From contig JAWSUS010000007.1 of NCBI GenBank assembly GCA_033549025.1, forward strand, positions 64,001 through 128,000: a stretch of 64,000 nt of DNA, given 5' to 3'. A program made the position numbers and the translations under genes. The stretch is from Desulfuromonadales bacterium (lineage in GTDB: Bacteria > Desulfobacterota > Desulfuromonadia > Desulfuromonadales > SZUA-540). Positions within the stretch are counted from its first letter, which is position 1. Every line of letters starts with the position of its first letter. The notes under the pieces are model-generated. The model was not told the origin of the DNA. It worked only from the letters and a program-made list of their open reading frames with translations, and searched no databases. Below, in pieces: positions 30,035-47,312 of the stretch.

Positions 30035-30119
30035 CACAGGGTGGAGGCAAGCGGCTTGACTGCCTGAGGCGAAGGTGCTAGAAATAAGGGCTTTTTACAG
30101 CCAACATGGGGGTGCGTTC

Positions 30120-31391: not shown

Positions 31392-31403
31392 TAAAGTGAC
31401 TGC

Positions 31404-31469
31404 GGAGGAGTGGCCGAGTGGTTTAAGGCGGCGGTCTTGAAAACCGTTGTACGAAAGTACCGTGGGTTC
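31404..31469 (+). pseudogene. 5' part of host tRNA-Ser(UGA), broken at the T-loop by the integrative element
   Basis: GGAGGAG acceptor 5' strand, D arm, anticodon loop CTTGAAA, variable arm; sequence stops after GTGGGTTC and the remainder is at 47146-47165. Confidence 0.93.
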
Positions 31470-31484
31470 TTATATCCGCCTCAG
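31470..31484. repeat. Left terminal inverted repeat TTATATCCGCCTCAG
   Basis: 12/15 match to the reverse complement of 47125-47139. Confidence 0.82.
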
Positions 31485-31533
31485 AACGCTGCACGTTTTA
31501 AAAACAATTGATAATTATTTTTATATAGAACTA

Positions 31534-31623
31534 GGTGGGCTGGCCGAGTGGTTGAAGGCGCTGGTCTTGAAAACCAGAAGCGATTAACGTCGCTCCGGGG
31601 TTCGAATCCCTGGCCCACCGCCA
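31534..31623 (+). tRNA. tRNA-Ser(UGA), intact and carried by the element
   Basis: Acceptor GGTGGGC/GCCCACC, anticodon stem CTGGT/ACCAG with TGA, long variable arm, GTTCGAATC, ends GCCA. Confidence 0.95.
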
Positions 31624-31633
31624 AAATAATAGT

Positions 31634-31674
31634 AAAAACGGGGACCTAGAGGATTCTGGGTCCCCGTTTTTTTT
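31634..31674 (+). terminator. Intrinsic terminator after the element's tRNA
   Basis: AAAAACGGGGACCTAGA..TCTGGGTCCCCG followed by T8. Confidence 0.85.
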
Positions 31675-31809
31675 GTCGTAACTCTCACATTCCCCTCTCC
31701 GCAAACCATAGTGCGCAGTAAAATAGCTGCGTCCTGTTGTGTTCCGCTAATCTTCCTATATACTGTCCCTCGAAAGTTACTGCGCTTTATTTCCTCGTCG
31801 GAGGGGTCT

Positions 31810-33267
31810 ATGAAAGCCGGCAGACGTTACAAGCACCTCGCACTGCTAAAAACGGCCAAGAACGGAAAACCAACGTTTGCGTTGCTGGCCGAAGATCAGG
31901 CCTTGTGTGACTTCTTCGATCATTGGGCATACCTGCTCGCCAAAAATAACAGCCCTAACACCGTCCGTGCCTACTCCTACGCAGTTGCAGATTTTCTCAA
32001 TTATATCGAAGAGATATCAATTCGGTTCGGCCCCCTCACCCGGGCCTTGCTTCGTGAGGCAATTGACAGCTATGAGAGCTACCTTGTTTTTGGTGAAGAC
32101 AGCGATGCTGAGATGGCGGCGGCGGCGGCCAAGGTGCTTGGCTCAAGAAGCTTGTCGGGAGGCTCCGTCGAGCAGCACTTTGCTGGTGTAAATCGATTTA
32201 TCGAGCAAAGCGAGAATCTTCGACAAAGCCTGCAATCTCTCGTAGGTACAGGTTTTTTGTCCGGACCCGCCAGCGCAGCGACAGCGTTGGTGGAGTATGG
32301 TTACGCCGACACGCCCGCCAAGGTTCAGGCAGCGATAAAGGGGAACAGTTGGCTGGCTGGGTGTATCAGCGGTGGTTACAAGAAGTTGGCGAAGAGGGGG
32401 TTGGGGAAAAAGGCCAAGGCGTCAGGCGTGGCTCACACAAATGAACACGGTGGCGACGATAAGACTTTTCCTTATGATCTCGCCGTCGCCACGATTAAAC
32501 AGGCCCCTTCTACTCGTGAAATGCTCTTGTGGTCTCACCTCTGCGCTACTGGATGTAGGGTGCATGAGGCTTTAACAACTCTAATCGATGACATAATCAT
32601 CGATATCAACGACCCAACCAACAATAGTGTTCGTATAGTCGACCCAGAAAAAAGGCGTAATGTGCTCTCTAGGTATCTGACCGAGGAGCAGATCAACATG
32701 CTTCCCCATAAAGGTAGACAGACAGAGACAACATATATGATTGAACCCTTTGCCTCAATGTTCTGGAAGTATCTCGATAAGTACATCCAAGAGGAGAGGG
32801 GTAAGGACAAAGGAAAAGGAAGGATTGTAACGCACAAGTTTCTTTATAGAAAACTAACCGACGGTGAGCCTTGCGTTAACTCCTACCAAACCCTTTGGGA
32901 GCGTTTCCATACTGTTTCCTTAAAGGTTACAGGGGAGTCTTACGGGTTTCACTCTTTAAGGCATATGTATGCCTACTATTTAGTGAACTTTGCCCCTAAT
33001 CCAAGCGGTGGCTTTGGTTTCGATTTGAAGACCGTTGGTGATTTACTTGGTCAAAAAAGTTTAAGTGCAACAAAAAGGTACGCAAGGAAAGACGCGCAAT
33101 TGCTTAGCATCGCCATAGGCGCTATGAATTACGAGAGGGATAGGAACCCCCACTTTTCTATTGCAAGCGCAAGACTATCTTTTCTTGAAAAGGAAGTGGA
33201 GAAGTTAAAGATGCAGATCGAGTACAATAATGCGGCCGGGGGGAAAGACATTGGTCAACTTAACTGA
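31810..33267 (+). CDS. Tyrosine recombinase
   Basis: TGCRVHE (R), HKGR (K), FHSLRH (HxxR), LGQ..ATKRY (Y); GGAGGGG RBS before ATG 31810. Confidence 0.88.
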   Translation: MKAGRRYKHLALLKTAKNGKPTFALLAEDQALCDFFDHWAYLLAKNNSPNTVRAYSYAVADFLNYIEEISIRFGPLTRALLREAIDSYESYLVFGEDSDAEMAAAAAKVLGSRSLSGGSVEQHFAGVNRFIEQSENLRQSLQSLVGTGFLSGPASAATALVEYGYADTPAKVQAAIKGNSWLAGCISGGYKKLAKRGLGKKAKASGVAHTNEHGGDDKTFPYDLAVATIKQAPSTREMLLWSHLCATGCRVHEALTTLIDDIIIDINDPTNNSVRIVDPEKRRNVLSRYLTEEQINMLPHKGRQTETTYMIEPFASMFWKYLDKYIQEERGKDKGKGRIVTHKFLYRKLTDGEPCVNSYQTLWERFHTVSLKVTGESYGFHSLRHMYAYYLVNFAPNPSGGFGFDLKTVGDLLGQKSLSATKRYARKDAQLLSIAIGAMNYERDRNPHFSIASARLSFLEKEVEKLKMQIEYNNAAGGKDIGQLN

Positions 33268-36200
33268 TCGCCCGATATGGAATGTAGACGATTCCGAGGT
33301 CGGGGTCAAAATAAGAAGAGCTGTAACCGAGGTTCATCGAATATGTAGAAGCATTATTCCCGTTGGCACAACCGGCAAACAATCAGCTATGGTGCCAACC
33401 TTAAAGGTCCTTGAATCGAAAGACCTTAGAACTATTGACACTTGGTCCATTGACAAGGCGAACAAGTTCATAGATAGGGCCGCACACACCAAGGACGTAT
33501 CCCCTCCAGGGGGGGTAGATGATATTTTTGGCGGAATCGCCAAGTGGGGCGCCACCCGTGGGTTTGGTACCTTCGCAAAGTTGGTGGTGATCCAATTGTG
33601 GATTGACGAAGTATTGATCGCCCCGTTGAATTACGGTGCGCCGTCAAACACAGACCATATACTGGATGCTTTGATCGCCAATGGTGAAAACAGCATCCTC
33701 GTTGATGTTCGCTCGGTGAATAAACTATCAAAGTTCGAGTATAGGGGGAGCGATAAGTTAGAGGATAGGAATAGGAGGGCCAATCATTGGTTTAGGCTGC
33801 TGCTGAATACCTCATTCTATAAGGTCGAGTCTTTAACCGAAGACGATATTAAAGTCCTTTTAAGGGCTGGTAGTGGCGTTAAAAGCTTGTTGCCGAGGTA
33901 TTACGTCCCCGACTTCCTTTTATCAATTACGGCCAAAAATGCAGAACTAAAGAAAACCGTCTCTGATCTGATTAGTGGCCATAAAGTGTCCGTTGCCGAA
34001 GCTTATAGTGCCGGTAGGGCGGAAAAGGCAACTCTGCCACCTCGGGTTAATAAAGGAGAATTAATTCCTAAGCTCTGTCTCGACTATTCAAGTGGATCGG
34101 ACCCGGACATATCGCTGGAAGATCTGGTTGGCGAGGTTGTTGGGACCATAAACCTTAGGAAGGTTTTCGGTGGCTCCCATGCGGATATGGGTCTGCCCAT
34201 CTACAAAGGGCTTCCAGATAAGGTAAGGGATTTTTGTCAGTTAATAAACACGACGTTTTCAAGCTTCATTAGGACGGCAGGGCAAATAAAAGGCGACAAT
34301 TATATCTTCGCCAAAAATATTATGATGTTTTACATATCGGTATGCCTGCCGAGGTTCTATCTGGATAGAGATGGGAGACTAGAAGAGTATCCAACTACGC
34401 TTAATGAATTCTCCTGTCCCTATTATGTTACAAGGGACTCCTTGTTGGACGATGTTCTCGATTATGACAAGAAGGCTCCAGACACGCTGATATCATTTGT
34501 GAACCTGTATTCAGACCTTCATGATTGGGTAAACGATACTCTCTATGCTCGTGTGCTGATACTGGAAAAGTATTTTCAGTATATAGTTGACAACAGAACA
34601 CTGATTCCGAACTCCGATAAAGTAACAAACACCTTTACTAAGGCCAATTATCCAAGAACAGCCAGGCGAACAGGAACGGCCAAGAAGCCAATACCAAGGA
34701 AATACTTCTCCACGTTCGTCGGATTATTATATACGCTTGAGTATTTGGTGACCCATCTAAACGCCATGGCCGATGGGCTTGCGCCCGGCTCAATTAACGG
34801 CAGTCTGCAATATGTGACCAGGGCCGAACTTGAAGAGCGGCATCTGTGGAGGGGGCTGTGGGGTAAGCCGGGGAGTATCGGCGGCCTGCTTGACCTGTCT
34901 TTATTGAACTACACGCCGATATATTTACACGGAGGCAAATATAGGCCGCTAAAAAAGTGTCACAGGTTCTACAGTATTTCAGAGTACGAACAGAAAGACG
35001 GTGTTCCTATCTCTTACGCAAGCCCTCACGAGATAAGAGCAACCATCCTGATGTGTGAAACAGGTATAAGACAAAAGCACCTACTATGGTTGGACGTCGA
35101 CCGGTATGACTGTTTTGTCGATAGAAGCCACGACCATGTACTATGCCCGTTGCTTGTAAATACAGACAAGGCCCATGATGAATGGACTGCTATCGTCAGC
35201 GCCAGGGTCATTAAAGTATGTGATCGACAAAGAGATTTTTACTTAAACTGTGGTGACCCGAGCTTTGACGAAAATATGTGGTACAGCGAAAGTGAAGGAG
35301 CCAAGTTCGGCAAGTTCAAACCGCTGTTCCGCCAGCCAAAGGCCGCAACCAGTTGGACGAACCATATAGCATTCCCCAAACTCCTCTGGACATTGCAGCA
35401 CATCATTCACGAGGATCTGAAGGAGTATGATGCTCCTGACCTTGTCATGCTTGCGTCCACCACTGGAAAAGGAGAGCGAACCGAAGTCATCGAATATACA
35501 GAAAAATCCCTGTCCGGATACAGGATTATCAGCAAGCACACCCCGCATGCGCTTCGGGCGGGCTTTGTGACAGAGGCCATCAGGTTTCTGCCCCCGTCGC
35601 TGATCGGTGAGTGTATGACCGGCCAAACGGAGTCCTTGGTCTGGTATTACACCGTCACCGACCCTAATGACTTCACGAGCCACCAGCAGTTGCTGGCCAA
35701 CTACCTATCCAAAAACGCAGAGGCAATATCACGAGGAGACGCTCCAGAGCTGGCCGCAACCGTGGCGAAGGTAAACAAAAAGCTGATGTCCGCTATTGAG
35801 GCCGACCCGGCCGCCGCAGTAGAAAAATATAAGCTTATGAGCCTCACCGGGATCTCGGAAGACAAGACGGGTCTGAAGCTGGTCCTAGCCAAAAAGCACA
35901 CGAAGCTGGCCTTTAACCCGTCTCATATATGCCCATTCGACAACAGGTGCCCCAAGGAGGTCTTCGAGGCGTACGGGCCGAATAGGCCGTGTGCTCTCTG
36001 TACGTATTCGATTCGAGGTGTCCCTCACTTGCCTGCGGTCAGCGCTTGCAAGAGCAAGAACTTTGAGCTGATGGGCGAATATCAACAAAAAATCATCGAA
36101 TACATTAAGCGGCCGAAGTCGGCCCAAAATGCAAGTGAGCTAGAAAAGCTCAACGATGAACATGACAATGCTATGCGAGAAGCAACGGCGCTAGAAGCGA

Positions 36201-36607
36201 TAGAACAGCAGCTCTATGCCCTGTCAGAGTCCGAAGACAGTAATGCCTACATTGTGCAAGAGAAGGATGCCCTAGTGGCACACTTTGAGAAGGTCGAACT
36301 TAACGAGGCAGAGCACCTTATAAAAAGGCTTGTCGACGTGCAGAACTTTCCAGATCTTGACAGTCCCACCATCCAACGGAAATTCGCCTATCTAAGAAAG
36401 AAGCTCCTCATTAATGATGGTGACTTGGCCGGTCTTTTAAGTGACTTCGACGGAGAAACAGAGGTTAAATTATTGACATCACAGTTGAAGAGCATGATGG
36501 ATGTGAAGAAACTTGGAGTAAAGGAGATATTTAAAATAGCCTCTTCAAATCCAAGGACTGAGCAAAACCTTTCATCCGGTTCTTCGATAAAGAATCTCTT
36601 GACCTAA
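33251..36607 (+). CDS. Very large (~1120 aa) tyrosine recombinase-like protein
   Basis: ETGIRQ (R), NTDK (K), TPHALRA (HxxR), TGQT..VWYY (Y), then Cys-rich HICPF..CP..PCALC; TTG start overlaps the upstream gene (start uncertain). Confidence 0.78.
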   Translation: MVNLTDRPIWNVDDSEVGVKIRRAVTEVHRICRSIIPVGTTGKQSAMVPTLKVLESKDLRTIDTWSIDKANKFIDRAAHTKDVSPPGGVDDIFGGIAKWGATRGFGTFAKLVVIQLWIDEVLIAPLNYGAPSNTDHILDALIANGENSILVDVRSVNKLSKFEYRGSDKLEDRNRRANHWFRLLLNTSFYKVESLTEDDIKVLLRAGSGVKSLLPRYYVPDFLLSITAKNAELKKTVSDLISGHKVSVAEAYSAGRAEKATLPPRVNKGELIPKLCLDYSSGSDPDISLEDLVGEVVGTINLRKVFGGSHADMGLPIYKGLPDKVRDFCQLINTTFSSFIRTAGQIKGDNYIFAKNIMMFYISVCLPRFYLDRDGRLEEYPTTLNEFSCPYYVTRDSLLDDVLDYDKKAPDTLISFVNLYSDLHDWVNDTLYARVLILEKYFQYIVDNRTLIPNSDKVTNTFTKANYPRTARRTGTAKKPIPRKYFSTFVGLLYTLEYLVTHLNAMADGLAPGSINGSLQYVTRAELEERHLWRGLWGKPGSIGGLLDLSLLNYTPIYLHGGKYRPLKKCHRFYSISEYEQKDGVPISYASPHEIRATILMCETGIRQKHLLWLDVDRYDCFVDRSHDHVLCPLLVNTDKAHDEWTAIVSARVIKVCDRQRDFYLNCGDPSFDENMWYSESEGAKFGKFKPLFRQPKAATSWTNHIAFPKLLWTLQHIIHEDLKEYDAPDLVMLASTTGKGERTEVIEYTEKSLSGYRIISKHTPHALRAGFVTEAIRFLPPSLIGECMTGQTESLVWYYTVTDPNDFTSHQQLLANYLSKNAEAISRGDAPELAATVAKVNKKLMSAIEADPAAAVEKYKLMSLTGISEDKTGLKLVLAKKHTKLAFNPSHICPFDNRCPKEVFEAYGPNRPCALCTYSIRGVPHLPAVSACKSKNFELMGEYQQKIIEYIKRPKSAQNASELEKLNDEHDNAMREATALEAIEQQLYALSESEDSNAYIVQEKDALVAHFEKVELNEAEHLIKRLVDVQNFPDLDSPTIQRKFAYLRKKLLINDGDLAGLLSDFDGETEVKLLTSQLKSMMDVKKLGVKEIFKIASSNPRTEQNLSSGSSIKNLLT

Positions 36608-36630
36608 AACAGCGTCTGGGGGGGTGTATT

Positions 36631-37275
36631 ATGGTGGCTAAGAAGAAGAGAACGTTTGATCCCTTTGAGGAGCATAGGGAAGGGAAGGTCAATAAAAGAC
36701 TTCGCCACGTAAGGACTTCCCTTTCGATTTTGAAGAATAGCAAATACAATAGCATGACAAAGCTCGCCGAGGCTGTTGCGGCGCTTGTTACCGAGTTCGA
36801 GTTGAGGGATGCGGGGGTTAATGAAAAGACCGATGAAATAAAGGGTTGCGACCCATCGGCGCTGATTCGGAGTGGCTCTAAGTATAGAGAGGCCATACAA
36901 GCAGGCTGGGAGATACGTCAGGGCGGTAGTGAAAAGGAAGGCGAGGGTGTTTCCGAGTTAGAGTCTCTAAAGATCAGGTGCGCAAACCTCGCCCACCATA
37001 ACGATCTGCTAGAAAGAAGGCTTGAGCATAAGGGTCTGACTGCACTGCTCGAGCAGCCTAATGCTGCGCTAGAGGAAAAGGTCAAGGATATTAGGGCCTT
37101 GCTTGACATTATCAACGGGGTGTTTGGGCAAGTGGCAGACTTGTTCACGACGGTACTGGAGGGGGATGAAGACTCTGAGCACCCCGAGGCGGGTCTGTAC
37201 GGGCCGCATGGCCTGGCTGTGGGAATTGAGGCGTTGAAGCGCCTTAAGGGGGCGCAAGATGGACAAAAAGATTAG
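36631..37275 (+). CDS. Element core protein with coiled coil, function unknown
   Basis: 214-aa ORF in operon with the recombinases; heptad-rich middle. Confidence 0.65.
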   Translation: MVAKKKRTFDPFEEHREGKVNKRLRHVRTSLSILKNSKYNSMTKLAEAVAALVTEFELRDAGVNEKTDEIKGCDPSALIRSGSKYREAIQAGWEIRQGGSEKEGEGVSELESLKIRCANLAHHNDLLERRLEHKGLTALLEQPNAALEEKVKDIRALLDIINGVFGQVADLFTTVLEGDEDSEHPEAGLYGPHGLAVGIEALKRLKGAQDGQKD

Positions 37276-37738
37276 TCCCCATGAGAAGGGCATCCTGAAC
37301 GCCAAGAACTACGCCAAGTACGTTAAGGGCCTGGAAGAAAACGGGAAGCAGTTTCCGGTTAATCAGTTTGGCGAGGTCAATAAGGAGGCTGTCGCTGCGG
37401 CCTGTGGCTTTAATCGTCAGGTCTTCAACCCAAAGAGTAACAAGAAGATGGCGGATCGCCTGGCGGCCGACGTAGATAGGATCGGGATTGAAGGTGAATA
37501 TATACCGCCACAAGCCCCGGGAGAGTCAGAAGGTGCACTGGCCAGGAGGGCAAAGAAAAGTGCGGAGACCGTTAGCAAGCTCAGGAAGGATCTGGCCATA
37601 GAGAAAGAAAAGGTCACGTCTCTTGAGGTGCAAATAAAAAAGCTCGAATACGAGCTTGATACGCTTAAACAGTCATCTGCCGAGCAGAAGAACAGCTTTG
37701 ACTTTATGGTTTCCACCGGCAGAAGGTTCACTCTATGA
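37259..37738 (+). CDS. Small HTH-like + coiled-coil protein, candidate recombination accessory factor
   Basis: VNKEAVAAACGFNRQVF HTH-like segment, C-terminal coiled coil, overlaps both neighbours. Confidence 0.65.
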   Translation: MDKKISPHEKGILNAKNYAKYVKGLEENGKQFPVNQFGEVNKEAVAAACGFNRQVFNPKSNKKMADRLAADVDRIGIEGEYIPPQAPGESEGALARRAKKSAETVSKLRKDLAIEKEKVTSLEVQIKKLEYELDTLKQSSAEQKNSFDFMVSTGRRFTL

Positions 37739-39909
37739 GAATCTCCGAAATCGTCGAAGTCAGAAATGTATGGCCTTCCCCGTTTGGTGGCGCCATGTTT
37801 AAGTGCGTAAAAGCCGGAGGAAGTCGACTGTTCTTATGCAAGGCAGGATACAACGTTCTTGCCAGGATACCCAAGGAGTCTGAGTTCTGGAAAATAACCG
37901 GAGATATGACCTACACCCAAGAAAATGGTGTCGTTTGTAATGTTATTTCGGCTGTGGTCACCGGCCTGCCATCAGACAAATATGTCGGCGGCCTGTTGAA
38001 AACCCATGATGCCTTCAGGGGTTTCGATTTCGGTCTAAAGAAGATCGACCGGCTCCTCGATGCTACCGCCGACTCCGACCTCGTTGATATGCTCAACAGT
38101 GGGGATTGGCAGTCCATCTCAAACACCGGGTTGAGCGAGAAGATATCTAAGCGGGTGTGCGAAGAGTGGGGCAAGCTGAAGGAGGAGAGGGATCTAGCTA
38201 CCTTCTTGCACGACCATCAGCTTGACAGTAGCTTGGCCTCCAAGGTCATCAAAATGTGCTCCCGCAACCCCATGGAGAGGCTAAAGAATAACCCCTTCTC
38301 CCTGCTCGCCTTGAGCAACGCTACAATCCGGAACCTGCAAGATATCGCAGGGATAGCCAGCAGGCTGGGCATTGACGAAAACGATGACCGGACTCTTGTT
38401 GGCCTCGTAGAGTTTGCCCTGTATGAGGCTCTGGAGGATGGGAGCACCATTGTCGAGGTCGACGCCCTGAGGGCCAGGATCTCCGAACTCAGCAAGCTGG
38501 TGGGCACTACCCTGCCACCAGACGCCGCCATCTGTGCAGCATTGAAGATCAAGGCCGTCTGTGTGTTTACGGAGGACGGCAAATACTTTATTCAGTTGAT
38601 CGGAGTTGCCTACATCGAACAAAGTGTCGAGAAAAAGCTTTCCTGGCTACAAAAACAGCCAATGCAGCTTCGACTGAAAGAGTTGTCTGGGGGCACCCTG
38701 ACTGAAAAGGTGAGCGCCTACAATAAGCGACTGCGTAACAGTGAGGGATATTCGCTTACAAACCAACAGTGTGATGCAGTTGAAATGGCTCTCTCTAACA
38801 GACTTTCCTTGCTGTCAGGTTTTGGTGGTACGGGTAAAACGACTGTTCTTAAAGCCATAGTTGAGCTTGCCGAAGAATTTGAAATACCAGTACATGTCTG
38901 TGCTTTAGCTGGAAAGGCGGCCGACAGAGCGCGGCAGTCAATCAACCGTGAAACCTTCACTATTCATGGGTTGATATACGAGATAATAAAATCCAACGGT
39001 AAGGTTAATAAGGGGTCAGATCCGCTCATTATCATTGATGAGTCCTCCATGGTCGACATTTCACTTGTCAGGAAATTCCTTTCTTCATTCGGCGATAGCC
39101 CATTTAAGGTTCTGCTGGTCGGAGATACTGCACAGTTGGCTCCAATTGGGTTTGGCTTGTTCTGGCACGAGATGGTTAAGTCGGACGTGCCGAAGGTTCA
39201 CTTGACCAAGGTCCATCGCCAGTTGGCAGGAAGCCCCCTGCATAATGCGGCAATGCATATCAGAGAGGGCCAAATTCACGCCCTGGAGAAGTATTCGGGC
39301 CAAGAGGAGGGTATCTACCTTCTCGGAAGCATCGGCGACCCCAGGGTGGCGATACGCGATCTCATGAGGGAGGTGGATGCGGTTACGCTTACTTCGTACT
39401 CCAGCGACCGAATCGCTGGCTCATCAAGCCAGCTAAACGCTTACCTGCAAGGCGAACTTAACTCCAAGAGAGGAGTAAGTATGGGGCTTGCCACTATAGC
39501 TTTAAAGACTGGCGATCCAGTTATTGCGACGATCAACAACCAGGCGCTGGGCATTTACAATGGTATGGCGGGCTTTGTTAAGTCCATCGTTATTGATGGC
39601 GACGGTACAATGGGCTGCAATATCAAGTTTGACGACAGATCAAGCGAGATATTACTTTCGAGGGACGAGTGTTTCGAGGTTGGTCTCGATCTGGGATATG
39701 CCATAACTATTCATAAATCCCAGGGCAGCGAATATGAAAGCTGTATTGTCTGCTTGAGTAAGAACCTTGAAAGAAGTGCTATATACACCGCTGTAACAAG
39801 GACAAAGAAACTCTGCATTATTGTAGGCACTCAGCAGCAATATAATGATGCCGTCCGGGGGGAGCCGCGATACGAGCAGATCCAGTGTGGGTTTAGGTGC
39901 GCAGCCTAG
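37735..39909 (+). CDS. RecD/RecD2-like SF1B helicase
   Basis: GFGGTGKT, IIDESSMVD, GDTAQLAPIG, YAITIHKSQGSEY, YTAVTR. Confidence 0.9.
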   Translation: MRISEIVEVRNVWPSPFGGAMFKCVKAGGSRLFLCKAGYNVLARIPKESEFWKITGDMTYTQENGVVCNVISAVVTGLPSDKYVGGLLKTHDAFRGFDFGLKKIDRLLDATADSDLVDMLNSGDWQSISNTGLSEKISKRVCEEWGKLKEERDLATFLHDHQLDSSLASKVIKMCSRNPMERLKNNPFSLLALSNATIRNLQDIAGIASRLGIDENDDRTLVGLVEFALYEALEDGSTIVEVDALRARISELSKLVGTTLPPDAAICAALKIKAVCVFTEDGKYFIQLIGVAYIEQSVEKKLSWLQKQPMQLRLKELSGGTLTEKVSAYNKRLRNSEGYSLTNQQCDAVEMALSNRLSLLSGFGGTGKTTVLKAIVELAEEFEIPVHVCALAGKAADRARQSINRETFTIHGLIYEIIKSNGKVNKGSDPLIIIDESSMVDISLVRKFLSSFGDSPFKVLLVGDTAQLAPIGFGLFWHEMVKSDVPKVHLTKVHRQLAGSPLHNAAMHIREGQIHALEKYSGQEEGIYLLGSIGDPRVAIRDLMREVDAVTLTSYSSDRIAGSSSQLNAYLQGELNSKRGVSMGLATIALKTGDPVIATINNQALGIYNGMAGFVKSIVIDGDGTMGCNIKFDDRSSEILLSRDECFEVGLDLGYAITIHKSQGSEYESCIVCLSKNLERSAIYTAVTRTKKLCIIVGTQQQYNDAVRGEPRYEQIQCGFRCAA

Positions 39910-39986
39910 GTCGCCCGGCATCGCTGCCGCCGGCGGTGGCGGCTGGAAAACCAACATTGAGGCATTGACTCGGAAGAGGCACAGAG

Positions 39987-40646
39987 ATGTATCCAATCAA
40001 GTCGATCGTCTATTGGCTAGTTGTAGTTTTTGGCGTCTGTTTTTCTTTGAGTGGGTGCGCTGGTCTTATCCATACTGAAACAACACGTATAAAGGTTGAA
40101 GGTCTCATTGTTACTGACAGGGAGCATTTAACTGAGTGGTCGGAGTTTTTCAGTTCCCCAGATTCCAGGGTAAAAATTATTTCGGAAGAGGATAGCCTAG
40201 TACAAGCCTCGGACTTGGAAGTTGAGAATAAATTCTATCATGTCTCTTATTTGCCATACTACCAAGGGTTTTGCGAAGATTTCCGAAACGAAGGTCTTGT
40301 TGAAAAAGTTCAACGGGAATTTAAAAAGAAGAATGAAGGTATTATTGTCGAAAGCGCTAGTGTAGACGAAAAAACATTACAGAATTGCAAGGATGGACTT
40401 CAGAGCAGCGTAATTTGGTCGACCAACAACGACTCACACGTAGCCGAATTGCCCTTGACTATATATATGACTCTGGACTCCCTAGTAGAGAGTAAATACA
40501 AATATGAGTGGGCTGGAACGCGATGTGCTGATGGATGGATATCCTCTTCGACCGGAAGAGGAGCCTGCTCCTGGCACGGAGGGGTAGCTGGATCTGTGTA
40601 TAGGAAAAGATACCTAGTTGATAAGAATAGCCCATTATTCCCCTAG
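39987..40646 (+). CDS. Lipoprotein with C-terminal DUF3761-like Cys/His motif
   Basis: Lipobox LSGC; C-terminal CADGWISSSTGRGACSWHGGV. Confidence 0.7.
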   Translation: MYPIKSIVYWLVVVFGVCFSLSGCAGLIHTETTRIKVEGLIVTDREHLTEWSEFFSSPDSRVKIISEEDSLVQASDLEVENKFYHVSYLPYYQGFCEDFRNEGLVEKVQREFKKKNEGIIVESASVDEKTLQNCKDGLQSSVIWSTNNDSHVAELPLTIYMTLDSLVESKYKYEWAGTRCADGWISSSTGRGACSWHGGVAGSVYRKRYLVDKNSPLFP

Positions 40647-40669
40647 CCCTATCGACCGCGCGGTCTACG

Positions 40670-40861
40670 TTGAGGACATTCCTTCCCGTCTCCTCACGAT
40701 ACAACCCGTTCTATGGCCATACCCTTAAAGGCGCACTGAAGCAAATCAAACGCCTACTTGGCTGGGAAGCCGAAAATGCCTACGTTGACAAGGGCAACCC
40801 GAAGCAACTGGGCAAGACCAATGTTCATCTGAACATGGAACTTTATTCGATTGTGGCCTGA
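40670..40861 (+). pseudogene. IS5-family transposase fragment
   Basis: NPFYGHTL..ALKQ..LLG..AYVDKG resembles the NPYDGHTL..VDRG segment of IS5-type DDE transposases. Confidence 0.5.
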
Positions 40862-40880
40862 AGGCGAAATTTCGAGTTTT

Positions 40881-41369
40881 TCAGGGACGACTATTGTAAA
40901 AGACGACGTCTAAATCGAGATAAGAACAAAAAAGGAAAAAGGGGCTCCCGCTTATTCTCCAAGCGCGTGGACGCCATTGGTTAACATTGCCATACAAAAC
41001 AAGCATTGACGGGTTGTCGACGTAATTATCTGGAAACCTAGCTATATTTCTCAGGGCTTTTTTGTCTTTTCCGCTGAGGATTCCAGGCCCCGATGGGTGC
41101 GTATGCCAATCTCCCAAGTAAAAAATCTGCCCATCTTTTTCATCATAAATCCGCCCCATCTCTTCTCTCTGATAGTCTTCATCGGGGCTAAAAAAGCATT
41201 CCCCATGCACAGCATTAAGGCCTGGCCCGACCATGCCTGTGGCAACGATCTCTGTATTGTCTCTTGAGAAGTAACCGACTAAAAGCCCCCCTGTTTCCAG
41301 GGGGGCTTTATCGTTCGCCTCATCAAGCATCTCTTGATAAACGTTATTATTTATCCAGATCCTTTTCAT
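40881..41369 (-). CDS. JAB/MPN+ (JAMM) metallo-isopeptidase
   Basis: ETGGLLVG, YLGDWHTHP..SGKD (E..HxH..S..D); ATGA overlap with the upstream E2-E1 gene. Confidence 0.9.
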   Translation of the reverse strand: MKRIWINNNVYQEMLDEANDKAPLETGGLLVGYFSRDNTEIVATGMVGPGLNAVHGECFFSPDEDYQREEMGRIYDEKDGQIFYLGDWHTHPSGPGILSGKDKKALRNIARFPDNYVDNPSMLVLYGNVNQWRPRAWRISGSPFFLFCSYLDLDVVFYNSRP

Positions 41370-43144
41370 TTACCGCACCACGGGTTGCTACAATCAGGAT
41401 GCTTTTCCAGCTCAAAAGACTCCCACTTTGGGAAGATTGCTTTACCATTTTCACGCAAATGCAGAATCCCAACATCATTATCCATTGCTGGATAGTCGCC
41501 AGAAGAACCATCGCACATTATCGATATTGCCATGCGAACACCAGCCAGAGAAATTTCCTGAACATCAAAACTTGTTGCCTTGAATGTTAAATCTCCGCAC
41601 CCTACCGGCTGAAGTTCATCTCCCTCTGGGTCGAAAGTAGGTTGAGATATTTTGCCTTCCTCTAGCGCCCTTAGGTAGCAGAGGAAGCATCCTTTACCAG
41701 ACAAAATCCTAACAACACTCCCGCCCCATCCTCCAGGACGTGAAGATACAGCAACATACGGGATACTATACTTTTTTGCCATATCCGCGATGAGATGGTT
41801 TATTCCAAGCTCAGCCGTTGCGTCATAAATAAGATCTGCCCCATCTAGCAACCTTTTCAGGCCTTCAAACTGGTCATAATCTGGAGTAACCTGACCAAGA
41901 ATTATTCTGAAATCATCATTACCTGCATCCGGATAATGATCCGTTCCAATTCGTGTTAAAGGATAATTTTCACGAATCTTTTCAGACAGGAATTGGACCT
42001 TGCCCGATGTTATTGCTGACATTCCTTCAGGCCATCGGCAAACTGTTCCGGAACTTACATAGTCTCCATCCCACAATCTCAGTTCAGCAACTCCTGCACG
42101 TGCGAACTCCAATGCGCTCGGAGCACCCACACAACCCAAGCCAATAACGGCGACAGTCTTTTCTCGTAATGGCCTTAACTCAGGGACCCGTTGAAAAAGA
42201 TCATTTTCACCTATTGCTTCCGTTGTTATTACCCAAGTCGCTACCTCGATTTTTTTCTTCCCGCCCTCTTTGTACATTTTTGTCTGATACGCCAGAAACA
42301 ACCAACCATCCCTGTATCCACCACCGGGGGCTTCTTCCTTGAAACAGAAGCCATGAACTCCGCTTCTGCCCTTATTAATTTCATTATCAATCACACGATA
42401 GGCTACCGGGTTTATAGCCCTTATACTTTCACAAAACGTAACACCAGAGCTTAGCCTTGGCACCTTATCAATTCGTGACCACCTGATAGTATCCACACTA
42501 TTTGTTTTAGCGGTTGCATACGCTCCAATCGCAGGGTTTACGGAGCAGTCGCCTACCACGCTCTTGTCACTCTTCTGTATTGAGTGAACCCATGCTTTAA
42601 GCGGTTTATGAGGAGAGATTTTTCTTATGGGGTGGGTTGAAAATATTCTCAAAAGCCCCTCCCTGACTTTTTCAGGCAAGGACCAAGAGCTGTCCATCAA
42701 AAATATTTGGTTCTTGAATGGAGCAAAATAAGCACTTTGCGGCTCCGCTTGATGATCCTCTGTATCTAAACGCGAGTCATCAAAACCACGAACTGCCGCC
42801 CTCTCCCATTCCGGGAGCATTTCAACAATATGCTTAGCTGCCGTCCTGCAAGGTTGCCACTCTCCGGTACCTCTTTTCAGAAGGCATATTTCGCCGGTAT
42901 GAGGGTTATAGTGCCGCAGACCACCCCCCAGGCCCAAGCAATTTACTACCGGTCTGAAGTATGGATAAAGCTGAGGATACTCGATCCAGCCATTTTCACC
43001 CTGGCCGAATATTGTGAGTTTTATCCGAACAACAGCAAGGCCTCTAGCAAATGATTCATCGTCCTTAACTGGTTGCAAACCAGATTCTTGGAGTGCGGTG
43101 AGTTCTTCGTCTAAAACGGCAGGGTACTCATCCCACCACCGCAT
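41366..43144 (-). CDS. Prokaryotic E2-E1(ThiF) fusion protein
   Basis: N-terminal E2-like YPQLYPYFRP..HYNP..GEICL; C-terminal ThiF VAVIGLGCVG, WDGD, DATA, CFLC, candidate catalytic PVGC, terminal CxxxxC. Confidence 0.88.
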   Translation of the reverse strand: MRWWDEYPAVLDEELTALQESGLQPVKDDESFARGLAVVRIKLTIFGQGENGWIEYPQLYPYFRPVVNCLGLGGGLRHYNPHTGEICLLKRGTGEWQPCRTAAKHIVEMLPEWERAAVRGFDDSRLDTEDHQAEPQSAYFAPFKNQIFLMDSSWSLPEKVREGLLRIFSTHPIRKISPHKPLKAWVHSIQKSDKSVVGDCSVNPAIGAYATAKTNSVDTIRWSRIDKVPRLSSGVTFCESIRAINPVAYRVIDNEINKGRSGVHGFCFKEEAPGGGYRDGWLFLAYQTKMYKEGGKKKIEVATWVITTEAIGENDLFQRVPELRPLREKTVAVIGLGCVGAPSALEFARAGVAELRLWDGDYVSSGTVCRWPEGMSAITSGKVQFLSEKIRENYPLTRIGTDHYPDAGNDDFRIILGQVTPDYDQFEGLKRLLDGADLIYDATAELGINHLIADMAKKYSIPYVAVSSRPGGWGGSVVRILSGKGCFLCYLRALEEGKISQPTFDPEGDELQPVGCGDLTFKATSFDVQEISLAGVRMAISIMCDGSSGDYPAMDNDVGILHLRENGKAIFPKWESFELEKHPDCSNPWCGK

Positions 43145-43296
43145 TAGCCTACCTGTCTTCCTCCACCAGGATTCGGACGATCGGCTGGACGATTCCCGGG
43201 ATTTTCTGGAGGGGTAGCTGGAGTTGCAGGATTTCCTGGCCCATTAGGGTCTGCCGGTGTTGCAGGATTTCCTTGGCCTTTATCATTGTTTGCCAT
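43144..43296 (-). CDS. Unannotated 50-aa Pro/Gly/Asn-rich peptide ending in Gly, candidate protein modifier
   Basis: Hand translation MANNDKGQGNPATPADPNGPGNPATPATPPENPGNRPADRPNPGGGRQVG*; GAGGT RBS; TAATG stop/start overlap with E2-E1; below the ORF-track size cut-off. Confidence 0.82.
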   Translation of the reverse strand: MANNDKGQGNPATPADPNGPGNPATPATPPENPGNRPADRPNPGGGRQVG

Positions 43297-43353
43297 AACC
43301 GAACCTCATCTTTTCGTTAGAGTACAACATATTAATCAAATCCAACAACACCC

Positions 43354-43382
43354 AAGTTATCACTCCAAAACGAGACCGTCAA
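43354..43382 (-). promoter_or_regulatory. Sigma70-type promoter for the peptide-E2E1-JAB operon
   Basis: Minus strand TTGACG-17 bp-TAACTT with extended -10 TGn. Confidence 0.62.
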
Positions 43383-43388
43383 CCAAAA

Positions 43389-43436
43389 ACACAATATAAA
43401 AGTATGAAGCGAAATCCAAACCACTATATATTGTGG
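43389..43436. promoter_or_regulatory. Tandem NrdR-like boxes
   Basis: CCACTATATATTGTGG (43421-43436) and weaker ACACAATATAAAAGTA (43389-43404), starts 32 bp apart. Confidence 0.6.
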
Positions 43437-43452
43437 CATATATCGAATTAGG

Positions 43453-44336
43453 TGTTAGAAATCTGAGCGTTGTTTACACTTTTTCGCCATAGAAATGATC
43501 GAGTAGCTTTTCGTATGGCGTCATCCCGTCAATGCCTTTGTAGGGCTTGACCGTGTTGTAGAAGTTAGTGAAGCGCAGCAGGCTGATCTGGCGACTCTTT
43601 CGATCACCGAACGTTTCCTTCTGGTGCCACATCTCCATAAGCGTGAGGATCGCGCGTTCTGCTTTGCCATTGGTCTGAGGTCGATTGATCGAGTGAATTT
43701 TTGGCCAATACCGAGTTCAGCGCAGGTTTTTACAAAAGCGTGTTCGCTGACTCCTCTGAATTCTTTGCCGTTGTCTGAGTAGGTGTATTCGATGGTGTAA
43801 AGACTTTCATCGGCAACCTGGCGCAAAAAGAGTTCAGCACTGTATTGGGTCTTGTCCGGGAATATCCCAGCGTAAAGTTCCCGGGAAAAATCGTCAATGG
43901 CGACGAACAGATACTCTCTGGGAAGTGACTGATCCTCGCCTTTAATCAACGGGAGACGTTTGCTTTCAAAATGGACCAACTCTCCCGGATATGATTTGTT
44001 GTAACGCCTGGCTTCACGTTTGCGCTTTTCTTCAAGCTCGCGTTCAACCTTGGCTAGACGCTTTAGCCCATACTTGAGGCTGCGGAAACGATTATTGACG
44101 CTGCGTCTCGGAACGAATTCCTGCTTCCTGGCCCGGGCCAGTGTCTTGTAAATCGTTGGCCGTGAGACGCGATACATTTCTGCCAGGCGACTGACCTTGT
44201 ATTCGCCTGTCTGCCATAACTGCCAAATCTTCTGGCGGTCATGGGGTGTTAACCGTATGTGTTTGTGCATGACCATGTTTGCAAAATCCTCCTTCACCAA
44301 TATCGGATTCTGTAAACAATGCGTCAATTTCTTACA
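43453..44336 (-). mobile_element. IS481-family insertion sequence (884 bp)
   Basis: TGT..ACA ends, 26-bp imperfect IRs (TGTTAGAAATCTGAGCGTTGTTTACA / TGTAAGAAATTGACGCATTGTTTACA), flanking direct repeat AATTAGG. Confidence 0.88.
43474..44276 (-). pseudogene. IS481-family transposase, frameshifted
   Basis: HTH, AIDDFSR, SDNGKEF; RPQTNGKAER..YN..TPYE continues in another frame after about 43690. Confidence 0.85.
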
Positions 44337-44791
44337 AATTAGGTATTAAAATGATTTATGCTTAATTGCCCGTCTTAATGTTTACCCCAACACAATCCAA
44401 TAGCTAGATTACTTATTTTGGCGTGTTTTTACGTTTTGGGTTGGGATAAGGGTTAAGTGTAACGGGTAAAACGAGAAAGTTATCATACAAAATTGAAGCT
44501 GTATGATATGTGTATCTATTGATTGAATATCAAAAACTATTTTAGTCGTCCCTGAAAAATGGTAAGAGACTGAAATTAAGTATATATTTCCTGTTTATTA
44601 TTGATAAAATCACCAGAAAACAGAGTTCATGCCTTCGCAGCTTTGTTCGTTGAGTTGGGGAATTGTTGAAATAATGGGCCGCTGTTTCTGCCAAGGCTCT
44701 GGTCAGCGCTTTTTATCCCTGGCGTTACCTCTGCTTTCAAGGAGAGCGATGTTCTGCCTTAGTCACGGTTGTGGTGTAAAAGGAGAGCTAA

Positions 44792-45946
44792 ATGGAAATG
44801 CTTAAATATTATCTGGGGGGACGTGAGCAGGCGTTTATAAAACATGCCCTGCTTAAGGCATATTTGGAAAAACTGTTCATGATAATCGGGCAGCGACAGA
44901 GGTGCATTTGTTATGTGGATTGCTTCTCAGGACCCTGGGAGGAAAGCGCAGAGAACCTCATGGATACATCCATAGGTATCTCGCTTGATATAATGGCAAA
45001 GTGCCGTAAAGCCTTGGCTGCAATGAGAAACGAAGTGAAGTTCCGTGCGCTTTATATAGAAAAAACAAGGAAGTCATATGATAAACTTCAGGATTTCCTA
45101 AAACAAAGCAAGGAACTAGGGGTGGAGACTAGAGCCATAAGAGGAGAGTTCCACAATAATCTCAATGAAATTATTGACTGGTGCGGAAGCAAAGACTTTG
45201 TCTTCTTTTTTGTTGATCCAAAGGGCTATGCAAATGTAATTGAACCACAAACACTTGAGCCGCTTCTACATAGAAAAAACTCAGAGATACTAATAAACTT
45301 TATGTATGATCATATTAATCGATTTGTCGAATCAAAATCAAATAGGAATTTAATTGTTGATATATTCGGAGAGGTACCTGTAGTTGGTGGCCTTGAACCA
45401 AAGAAGAGAGAAGAATACCTTCTTGAATTATATAGACGAAGGCTCAAGAGTGTTATGTCCGAAGTTGGCGGGGTGCCTCGATTCGCATATGTAAGCGTGG
45501 TAGACACAGAGAAGAGTAAAACAAAGTACGAAATGGTGTACCTGACTAGGCATGCATTAGGCATATTGAAGTTTTTAGAGGTATCTGAACCTTTGGAGAT
45601 AATACAAAAGCAAGTTAAACAGAAAGCCAAAGAGCATCGATCAAAGCAGCCGTCGTTGTTCTCCTTCGAGGAGATTCCCGAAGTGAACGAGGGGGTTAGC
45701 ATTGAAGAAGTGAAACATTTTTGGCTGAGAAAATTGAGCACTGTCCCTGAGCCTTTTGGCTATGATAGGATGGCTGACATGCATGAAGAGACAGGCTGGT
45801 TGCTAGGTGATTTTCAGCGTGCCTTCTCGGAACTGCTCAAAGAAGGCAAAGTGCAAAATATTGACATGAGTAAGCCTCGTCGCTCAAGGCCTATCCACTT
45901 TGAGGAGAACCGAGGTGAAGGCGAGCGCTTGAGAAAGCTGGTATGA
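44792..45946 (+). CDS. Three-Cys-motif partner protein (TcmP-like)
   Basis: KHALLKAYL, YVDCFSGP, FFFVDPKG, EILINFM; coupled to a DUF5131 gene. Confidence 0.78.
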   Translation: MEMLKYYLGGREQAFIKHALLKAYLEKLFMIIGQRQRCICYVDCFSGPWEESAENLMDTSIGISLDIMAKCRKALAAMRNEVKFRALYIEKTRKSYDKLQDFLKQSKELGVETRAIRGEFHNNLNEIIDWCGSKDFVFFFVDPKGYANVIEPQTLEPLLHRKNSEILINFMYDHINRFVESKSNRNLIVDIFGEVPVVGGLEPKKREEYLLELYRRRLKSVMSEVGGVPRFAYVSVVDTEKSKTKYEMVYLTRHALGILKFLEVSEPLEIIQKQVKQKAKEHRSKQPSLFSFEEIPEVNEGVSIEEVKHFWLRKLSTVPEPFGYDRMADMHEETGWLLGDFQRAFSELLKEGKVQNIDMSKPRRSRPIHFEENRGEGERLRKLV

Positions 45947-46683
45947 GTACAAAGTCAAAGATCGAATGGACCGAGCAGACATGGAACCCTGCGGTGGGTT
46001 GCAGCAAGGTTTCCCCCGGCTGCACAAACTGTTATGCCGAGGTGATGGCAAAACGCCTCCAGGCAATGAAGGTAAACGGCTATCAGAATGGATTCGAACT
46101 GACCACGTTGCCGAAACGGCTGGAGGAGCCGCTTATGCGCCAGCGTTCAACAGTTTTTTTTGTCAACTCGATGAGCGACCTGTTCCATGAGGAGATACCC
46201 TTCGACTATATTGATAGAGTTTTCGAAGTGATAGCGAAAACTCCGCGCCATACATACCAAGTCCTAACAAAGCGTGCCGAACGCATGGCCACCTATTTTG
46301 CAGAGCGTAAGACACCGCCGAACGTTTGGCTTGGTGTGACCGTGGAAGACCGTAAGCATGGTCTTCCACGCATTGATCACTTACGGCAGATCCAAGCCTG
46401 CATACGGTTTCTCTCTATGGAGCCGCTACTGGAAGATCTTGGCCCGGTTGACCTGACTGACATCCAATGGGTTATCGTTGGAGGCGAGTCGGGACCGAAG
46501 GCAAGGCCAATGAGGCCCGAATGGCCCAAGAGTATTCAGCGCCAGTGTCAAAAGCAAGGAGCTGCTTTTTTCTTCAAGCAGTGGGGTGGATGGGGTCCAG
46601 ATGGTATTAAGCGGGCGAAGAAAAAAAATGGTCGCATTCTTGACGGCAGAACATGGGATGAAACTCCGGCAATGTTCGGATAG
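45943..46683 (+). CDS. DUF5131 (phage Gp37/Gp68) family protein
   Basis: IEWT..TWNP..GCSKVSPGCTNCYA, FVNSMSDLFH, WVIVGGESG, FFFKQWG. Confidence 0.88.
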   Translation: MSTKSKIEWTEQTWNPAVGCSKVSPGCTNCYAEVMAKRLQAMKVNGYQNGFELTTLPKRLEEPLMRQRSTVFFVNSMSDLFHEEIPFDYIDRVFEVIAKTPRHTYQVLTKRAERMATYFAERKTPPNVWLGVTVEDRKHGLPRIDHLRQIQACIRFLSMEPLLEDLGPVDLTDIQWVIVGGESGPKARPMRPEWPKSIQRQCQKQGAAFFFKQWGGWGPDGIKRAKKKNGRILDGRTWDETPAMFG

Positions 46684-46812
46684 CCCGCACTCTCTCCCTT
46701 CTGCCATGTGCCTTCCCTTAGCTCTTCCCGCTCCAGCGGCCGAGTCTCACTTGCCCAAGGAGTCGAGGCGCGCCCGAGAAGAGTGAGCACAAAGAAAACC
46801 AGCCAAATAGAG

Positions 46813-46866
46813 CCGATACAAAAGCCCCTTGGAGCTGAGGTTGTTCCAAGGGGGCTTTTGTGTCGG
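46813..46866. terminator. Long hairpin, probably a bidirectional terminator
   Basis: CCGATACAAAAGCCCCTTGGAGC / GTTCCAAGGGGGCTTTTGTGTCGG. Confidence 0.7.
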
Positions 46867-46999
46867 GCCCGCCCCTACGTGGCGAGGCGAGTATCTTTGC
46901 GAAGCTCAACTAGGTTCGATAGCAGAGCCTTTTTACAATGCGCAGTTAAGTGCGCATTGTAGGGGCCGCACTCCGCCCCATTGCCACCTTAAAAACGGA

Positions 47000-47029
47000 T
47001 TGACATTAGCAGTGCATTTCAATTAGTAT
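47000..47029 (+). promoter_or_regulatory. Outward-facing promoter at the right end of the element
   Basis: TTGACA-18 bp-TAGTAT. Confidence 0.55.
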
Positions 47030-47124
47030 TGCCACCGTCCACGGAACATCGTGGACGCTCTAGTAGGCGAGCCGTTTCTCTAGGCGTCAGGCTTACTTAC
47101 ATACGGTTGGGAAGTGGGATCACC

Positions 47125-47139
47125 CTGAGCCTTATATAA
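47125..47139. repeat. Right terminal inverted repeat CTGAGCCTTATATAA
   Basis: Pairs with 31470-31484; abuts the second GGGTTC. Confidence 0.82.
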
Positions 47140-47165
47140 GGGTTCGAATCCTACCTCCTCCGCCA
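47140..47165 (+). pseudogene. 3' fragment of the split host tRNA-Ser(UGA)
   Basis: GGGTTCGAATCCTACCTCCTCCGCCA; CTCCTCC pairs with GGAGGAG at 31404 and CCTAC with GTGGG. Confidence 0.93.

Positions 47166-47216: not shown

Positions 47217-47312
<96 letters not shown>

Follow-up and report, generated by a model that had tools for sequence, protein, structure and literature searches.

An island interrupts a host tRNA-Ser(TGA) gene in a Desulfuromonadales bacterium and carries a complete tRNA with the same anticodon

Anatomy of the locus

We analysed a stretch of 64,000 nucleotides (the window; positions 64,001 to 128,000 of contig JAWSUS010000007.1, assembly GCA_033549025.1) from a Desulfuromonadales bacterium, in which a genomic island lies inside the T-loop of a host tRNA-Ser(TGA) gene (Table 1). 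The host is left with two dead tRNA parts, and a complete tRNA gene with the same anticodon is found just inside the left island end, in the same orientation. The 5′ part of the host gene starts 12 bp behind the seryl-tRNA synthetase gene serS and terminates in GTGGGTTC at 31469, followed by TTATAT. The hexamer GGGTTC is duplicated and forms the cores of both attachment sites; the island interior is therefore 31470-47139. This duplication is absent from an earlier note, made from the letters of the window. These 15,670 bp have a GC content of 47.8%, compared with 57.9% for the genome.

When the two host parts were rejoined, ARAGORN recognized an 86-nt tRNA-Ser(tga); at each junction alone, left or right, it found no tRNA. 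This agrees with the earlier note, which had stated that neither junction rebuilds the gene and that the rejoined halves are complete. The broken left half reached an Rfam score of 29.7 bits, barely above the cut-off of 29, and such halves are an annotation hazard: Rfam or ARAGORN call them tRNAs in the window (31404-31481) and at other loci with the same kind of break (L046:906-993; L085:4760-4855; L126:8687-8759).

The uninterrupted state of the gene is found in relatives. In two genomes of the same genus, the tRNA-Ser(TGA) at the empty site is identical, letter for letter, to the rejoined host gene, and neither genome has a second TGA tRNA there, which settles in favour of the earlier note the comparison that it had proposed. 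Among 19 loci of related genomes, 17 have an intact tRNA-Ser(TGA) followed by tRNA-Ser(GCT), and the other two yielded no tRNA. The break of the host tRNA-Ser(TGA) by the insertion of the island is confirmed.

Public read sets (six runs with shares of 0.05-0.20, four of them, all contigs, examined) did not span the island junctions or the joint of a circle. In the sets X2 and X3, single contigs join 31463 to 47140, one side being only 25-26 letters long, and probably represent tRNAs of other organisms; a further set, X1, contains scattered, near-identical pieces of 200-260 nt and may be the source sample. None of these was used as evidence.

Table 1 Features of the island and its surroundings (positions in the window)
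Feature	Position	Strand	Remarks
Host serS (seryl-tRNA synthetase)	30075..31391	+	TIGR00414 560 bits, cut-off 302
Host tRNA-Ser(TGA), 5′ part	31404..31469	+	Break in T-loop; attL core is its final 6 bp (31464-31469)
Left island end	31470..31500	+	Recombinase-site half starting with TTAT; about 21-24 bp inward, a conserved TGCA-like motif (consensus from 56 left ends)
Carried intact tRNA-Ser(TGA)	31534..31623	+	Rfam 58.4 bits
Intrinsic terminator behind carried tRNA	31634..31671	+	17 pairs
Tyrosine recombinase 1, 485 aa	31810..33267	+	From ATG 31810; PF00589 above cut-off; R250, H381-x-x-R384 and Y424 conserved in alignment
Large tyrosine recombinase, 1125 aa	33230..36607	+	R614, H773, R776, Y807 (in 31 aligned sequences) and C-terminal Cys cluster invariant
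Third core gene, 214 aa	36631..37275	+	Helical; no family or fold match
Fourth gene, 159 aa	37259..37738	+	Coiled coil; weak VPA1267-family match, E 0.0018, 18.5 bits (cut-off 90)
RecD2-like SF1B helicase	37735..39909	+	TIGR01448 300 bits, below cut-off of 500
Cargo open reading frame, 219 aa	39987..40646	+	Sub-threshold DUF3761 match only
Cargo E1/ThiF-domain protein (41366-43144) and JAB protein (40881-41369)	40881..43144	-	CBASS Cap2/Cap3-like pair without cyclase
IS481-like transposase remnant	43521..44327	-	NF033577 102 bits, below cut-off; related insertion sequence elsewhere in genome
Cargo TcmP-family protein and DUF5131 protein	44792..46683	+	PADLOC candidates PDC-M30/M41
Terminator (46825-46853), then outward sigma-70-like promoter (47000-47029)	46825..47029	+	Promoter 10/12, toward host tRNA-Ser(GCT)
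Right island end	47108..47145	+	Inverted half site starting with TTAT; attR core 47140-47145
Host tRNA-Ser(TGA), displaced 3′ part	47146..47165	+	Last 20 nt
Host tRNA-Ser(GCT)	47217..47310	+	52-54 bp behind tRNA-Ser(TGA) at the empty site

The carried tRNA-Ser(TGA)

The carried gene starts 64 bp inside the left island end. It differs from the host gene in the acceptor, anticodon, variable and T stems, and the two are identical at 52 of 70 positions over the 5′ part. The carried tRNA is the sole one with a TGA anticodon among the 55 tRNA genes of the genome, and a low-threshold search for further, intron-containing TGA tRNAs gave weak candidates only (best score 101.5 vs 125.7). The earlier note had proposed that the host gene is broken by the island and the damage made good by a whole foreign isoacceptor, and had named the uniqueness of this gene as a point to be checked; both hold, the former also through the family-wide anticodon match described below. 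According to standard wobble rules, UCA is read only by a tRNA with U34, and TCA occurs in 793 of the 1311 long open reading frames of the genome. Because it would be the sole reader of UCA, the carried tRNA is expected to be essential to the host.

From 31300 to 31850, neither strand was found to have a promoter-like site. It is probably serS that supplies a transcript running into the island, and the carried gene would then be read from the host promoter through the broken half. RNA folding of the junctions was uninformative. The terminator behind the carried tRNA would separate tRNA-Ser(GCT) from the serS transcript. The outward promoter at the right end was considered as a device of the whole family and rejected as such (2 of 43 right ends, against 1.25 expected); it may have a local role.

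Broken targets and carried tRNAs in the island family

A search with recombinase 1 yielded 124 homologues at E ≤ 0.001. The loci came from genomes (14), metagenomes (79) and viral contigs of IMG/VR (4), as well as from genomes of the same class and of Pseudomonas, in which 2 of 400 and 31 of 401, respectively, were recombinase-positive (one unpublished Pseudomonas genome, G506, enters only the recombinase and right-end tallies of the 401). Of 88 loci with enough downstream DNA, 87 have the large recombinase behind recombinase 1; 86 have the third gene, 42 the fourth and 28 the helicase gene. The placement of the module varies; it can be at either end, pointing inward, or further inside.

The screen for 5′ parts of tRNAs that stop at GTTC covered 132 loci, among which some islands occur twice. 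There were 77 high-scoring candidates with TT as the next bases; 71 were kept (TT[AT][TC]; L030 and L124 were left out because their anticodons were unreadable), and 63 remained after de-duplication. A broken half was not seen in 39 loci, in many of which the contig ends or the module is at the far end. A tRNA with the same anticodon was present within 700 bp of the break for 58 of the 63 distinct broken halves, its start within 100 bp in 55 of these 58, and one with a different anticodon for none. Two more (L114, L136) matched on re-scanning, and two islands carry the matching gene elsewhere: Leu(TAG) 9.6 kb inside in G114, and Gln(TTG) about 300 bp before the right end in G067. The total is thus 62 of 63, the exception (L100) being a contig of 3,457 bp. 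Among 76 control candidates, a matching tRNA was never seen. The survey of recombinase homologues that the earlier note had suggested gave the result that it anticipated.

Thirteen anticodon classes are hit: Ser TGA, GCT, GGA and CGA, Arg TCT, CAT, Gly CCC, CTA, Pro TGG, Val TAC, Thr TGT, Gln TTG and Leu TAG. On a tree of 74 recombinases (a quick IQ-TREE search), 13 anticodon changes are needed, compared with a mean of 46.3 after shuffling. In all five Pseudomonas carriers checked, the carried gene is the sole intact Ser(TGA) by pattern; the extra pattern matches in these genomes were one chance match and one prophage-type fragment.

Another proposal of the earlier note, that the divergent T-arm flanks of the carried gene may stop the island from integrating into itself, is contradicted at the family level, since the tRNA that an island has entered can be identical to its carried one. 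The broken and the carried tRNA are the same over 71 nt in L021 and L058 and at 68 of 71 positions in L057, and G577 is a similar case. In addition, L049, a 42%-identical homologue, sits in a tRNA whose last 20 nt are those of the tRNA carried by the window island. Self-immunity by T-arm divergence was therefore rejected.

Several loci have peculiarities of their own. Carried tRNAs with a CAT anticodon are split in the anticodon loop by an insert of 238-251 nt in L098, L111, L112, L113, L114, L126 (8874-9065), L128 and L135; the L126 insert matched a group I intron model with E 7.8e-6, under the gathering score, and a Thr(TGT) gene in L107 is split similarly. In L079 (60-380) and L086 (60-300) both the broken and the carried tRNA have the anticodon CTA, a hint of hosts that read TAG as an amino acid. 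L087 has two right ends (8152 and 11515) behind a single left end at a Pro(TGG) gene, which suggests a tandem or nested insertion. In L090 (3613-9943) and L096, the Ser(CGA) target stands at the end of a large tRNA array.

Island ends and the 6-bp spacer

The 56 left and 42 right ends collected begin with TTAT, first bases that were partly selected for by the search pattern, and lean to AGGT at positions 8-11. They form imperfect inverted repeats with TTAT directly at a 6-bp spacer that ends in GTTC. The right-end pattern was present in 25 of the 401 Pseudomonas genomes, 17 of them recombinase-positive, and the reversed control pattern in none. Of 19 complete islands, 10 have a left 6-mer unlike the right one. 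In nine of these ten, the left 6-mer pairs better with the 3′ strand of the tRNA; in G533 it pairs worse and is the native allele. The rule that the 6 bp of the target stay at attL and those of the donor land at attR fits nine of the ten differing islands, G533 among them; the doubtful one is G791.

To summarize, this is a family of widespread non-phage islands that are specific to the T-loop and leave a footprint, that have changed their target a dozen times with the tRNA in step, and that are new compared with the known systems discussed below. Our literature search found no description of the family, though subscription journals were mostly outside its coverage.

The recombination module and its relation to known systems

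Recombinase 1 had no match among sequences of solved structures. The 1125-aa protein had no match in Pfam or NCBIfam, and in its Atlas neighbours PF13009 is present in 21-100% of members. Its structural model (pLDDT 78.6, pTM 0.47) gave nothing at E ≤ 0.001 in a fold search, in which Tn1549 Int and XerH ranked first with E 0.02-0.07. From the invariant residues, the PF13009 neighbours and these weak fold matches, we conclude that the protein is a second tyrosine recombinase. The position of the third core protein would suit a TnpC/GmtX/Srap-like role.

The strategy of breaking a tRNA gene and replacing it, of which the earlier note made no mention in phages, is already known and evidently recurrent. 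Break-and-replace has been published as tRNA-dependent lysogeny of actinobacteriophages (Fionnbharth of cluster K4, cluster L, Gaia; PMC10865867); the same paper cites an earlier case from Lactobacillus, and Sinorhizobium prophages replace tRNA-Leu(UAG) (PMC11476347; PMC12429752). Our islands share with tRNA-dependent lysogeny a tyrosine recombinase, a short core in a single-copy tRNA gene, two unrepaired junctions and a carried cognate tRNA. Unlike those elements, they are not phages and use a T-loop site, two recombinases with a partner and heterologous 6-bp spacers. Furthermore, the island tRNA lies right behind the break in the host transcript, whereas that of the phages lies elsewhere under its own promoter, and the island family covers 13 anticodon classes, against 3 in Table 2 of PMC10865867.

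The recombination module points to a different set of relatives. As in integrative elements of the strand-biased circularizing type (SE), imperfect terminal inverted repeats surround a 6-bp spacer. In SE and Tn554, the 6 bp of the target stay at attL and those of the donor land at attR (PMC10214605; PMC12486829), a likeness that holds for our family as a whole, the window island being uninformative. SE have the order intA, tfp, intB, srap; our open reading frame maps give instead a recombinase, a recombinase of 1,080-1,180 aa and an open reading frame of 185-260 aa, with no separate Tfp gene in between. The large recombinase of about 1,100 aa and the tRNA targets also separate the family from SE and Tn554, the distinction from SE being made by description. 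The word tRNA is absent from the main texts, as available, of the papers on SE (PMC10214605) and on Tn554 and Tn552-II (PMC12486829); Tn552-II carries a copy resembling its target gene (PMC12486829).

Gamma-Mobile-Trio (GMT) islands, with the genes GmtY-GmtZ-GmtX, often carry a homologue of the gene that they disrupt (bioRxiv 10.1101/2023.03.28.534373). Our islands resemble them in this carriage, in the order of a recombinase, a long integrase and a partner of about 200 aa at one border (87 and 86 of 88 loci for the latter two), and in having defence cargo. By family models they are not GMT islands: recombinase 1 scored 21.6 bits against GmtY (cut-off 340), relatives scored about 20 bits against GmtZ (cut-off 600), in the catalytic stretch only, and none of the window proteins matched GmtZ or GmtX. 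A profile of the large recombinase did match true GmtZ with E 4.5e-13, again in the catalytic stretch only. The available main text on GMT does not mention tRNA; its supplementary insertion-site table may list tRNA targets.

The GInts (ginABCD; PMC5385486) likewise have a multi-recombinase operon at one end, staggered cuts of 6-7 nt and non-identical att sites. By description, they appear to differ in having three integrase-like genes, compared with two here by gene map and families, and they target protein genes, with no mention of tRNA in the main text available. With classical islands that target tRNA genes (Islander; PMC4383910) the family shares the T-loop as a recognised subsite. There, a fragment in attP restores the gene, whereas the left junction of our island continues with TTAT and contains neither the rest of the T-loop nor a 3′ stem. 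By the tests run, the family belongs neither to tRNA-dependent lysogeny, which is closest in strategy, nor to Tn554/SE/GMT, which is closest in its recombination module.

Proposed mechanism and alternative explanations

Most likely, the island is an integrative element that is not a phage, belongs to the two-recombinase Tn554/SE/GMT type and has specialised on tRNA T-loops. We propose that the two recombinases, together with the third protein, produce a circular copy, and that the 6 bp from the former left junction are retained in its joint. Insertion would proceed without full identity of the spacers, the 6 bp of the host staying at attL and those of the donor landing at attR. The recombinase site would have to begin at the spacer, so that the island end could not also spell the 3′ end of the tRNA; for this reason, repair by a duplicated fragment would be closed to the element and a whole tRNA would be carried. 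The carried tRNA could then outlive the decay of the island and end as a resident gene of the host.

Several points weigh against this interpretation. The anticodon match is partly survivor bias, because hosts that lost an essential tRNA would die. Both 6-mers of the window island are GGGTTC, and its mechanism therefore rests on its relatives. Among these, the left 6-mer of G791 pairs better but is not the allele that 15 of 15 empty-site matches show, which makes this case doubtful; the right-end patterns required GTTC, so variation is visible in the first two bases only; and of the 19 end pairs, two are on separate contigs and two span more than 100 kb. The host genome is a draft of 78 contigs, 100% complete and with about 9,500 bases masked. 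That the carried tRNA is expressed and essential, and that circles and transfer occur, is deduced from DNA sequence. We found no transfer genes in the island, and no match in plasmids, phages or E. coli genomes, that would point to a route from cell to cell.

Alternatively, the carried tRNA may first of all have been cargo, serving to improve the decoding of UCA-rich island genes or as insurance against anticodon nucleases, with repair of the target lost later. TCA makes up 18.4% of the Ser codons in the island, compared with 5.2% in the long open reading frames of the host, many of the targets read A-ending or rare codons, and the same order of events is raised in the phage paper (PMC10865867). 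However, the carried anticodon tracks the target through 12 of the 13 classes, including GCT, GGA, CGA and CCC, the carried tRNA starts within 100 bp of the break in 55 of 58, and none of the 63 islands represents a basal branch that carries a tRNA while repairing or avoiding its target. We regard this order of events as improbable; it concerns the origin only and is compatible with complementation at present.

The proposal that the island is a defective prophage or satellite, and thus simply belongs to the phage system described by Guerrero-Bustamante and Hatfull, could draw on the common logic of a short core, absent repair and a cognate tRNA, as well as on the presence of the recombinase on four IMG/VR contigs. 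Two of these four contigs have prophage-type 3′ tRNA fragments by the module, so that prophage and island may simply be neighbours. A PHROGs scan of 11 island open reading frames detected no virion, terminase or repressor families, and the large recombinase had no match in 50,697 phage records. Moreover, the site is in the T-loop and not in the anticodon loop usual for mycobacteriophages, and there are two recombinases and heterologous spacers, while the phage study saw no tolerance of mismatches (PMC10865867). This explanation is largely refuted, and we consider it very improbable.

Finally, chance is ruled out, and a mis-assembly, or a tandem duplication of the host tRNA followed by an unrelated insertion, which the draft state of the assembly and the lack of a read set spanning the junctions might suggest, is hardly credible: the carried gene matches the 5′ part of the host gene at only 52 of 70 positions and is absent from empty sites, the 6-bp duplication is precise, and an artefact is unlikely because relatives have empty sites and dozens of unrelated islands in independent assemblies have junctions laid out in this way, some of them closed chromosomes.

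With the integrative element proposed here, break-and-replace is no longer limited to a few phages but extends to islands of a common, non-phage class. A mechanistic reason for it is also suggested, namely that the recombinase site occupies the place needed for the tRNA 3′ end. By this means an island could make one of its ends indispensable without a toxin, and essential tRNA genes could be swapped between lineages. Such elements would be missed or mis-mapped by island finders that rely on a repaired tRNA with an accompanying fragment, and by annotation that takes the broken half for a tRNA. The family provides a natural set of recombinase pairs whose 13 T-loop targets are mapped, so that the way in which large Tn554-type recombinases choose their targets can be tested directly.

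Retention of the carried tRNA after island decay

A Ser gene of the island type is present in 93 of the 401 Pseudomonas genomes, mostly without a recombinase. We viewed 30 such loci and tested eight for an upstream remnant of the host gene. The remnant is clear at L197 (score 96, shuffles ≤29) and weak at L189 and L192 (1-3 of 300 shuffles at best); an island-type terminator is kept at L181, L189 and L197, and no recombinase remnant was found in the 20 kb behind L189, L192 and L197. In five genomes with decayed loci, the island-type gene is the sole Ser(TGA) by pattern. This shows that the carried tRNA was kept after loss of the island at one locus, and likely at two or three more. The earlier note had argued that the presence of the tRNA makes loss of the left end costly. 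Decayed loci that lost the recombinases and kept the carried tRNA and terminator speak for this, but one case is clear and two are weak.

Domestication as the source of the large resident Pseudomonas clade was rejected as a finding: upstream remnants were not significant in L179, L181, L182, L190 and L204, and the terminators of L179, L182, L190 and L204 are not of the island type (that of L181 is). A broader scenario is possible, although we hold it tentatively and rather doubt it than not. The family would be an undescribed branch of Tn554/SE/GMT with obligatory carriage of a whole tRNA, re-targeted across at least 13 anticodons by tRNA swaps, and would act as a standing mechanism of tRNA gene replacement; after decay, the island tRNA would be the essential gene of the host, which may also apply to the resident Ser(TGA) in the majority of the 93 Pseudomonas genomes.

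Two further observations concern Gly(CCC) genes. In L170 (G419), an intact host Gly(CCC) gene (9411-9484) is followed 7.6 kb downstream by an orphan right end (1801) with no recombinase match, possibly a healed or partly deleted island. In L171 (G633; 17888-17961), L136 and L146, a Gly(CCC) gene of the type carried by islands stands at a native promoter and is itself a target, which is a possible second case of replacement.

Cargo genes and neighbouring DNA

The RecD2-like helicase recurs across distant branches of the family and is a candidate for a copy-out or defence role. The E1/ThiF and JAB genes, with no cyclase or effector, stand directly behind the IS481 remnant and may represent a defence operon, CBASS-like or ubiquitin-like, that has been truncated. 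Ends akin to those of the insertion sequence here (43450-44350) match many contig ends, indicating that a relative of this insertion sequence is present in many copies and breaks the assembly. Outside the island, a search for a duplicated tRNA end as an island mark at 48762-53551 found none; this region, directly behind a tRNA-Ser(CGA) gene, encodes a 1334-aa protein with SLT, PAAR-like and type VI secretion system effector-family matches.

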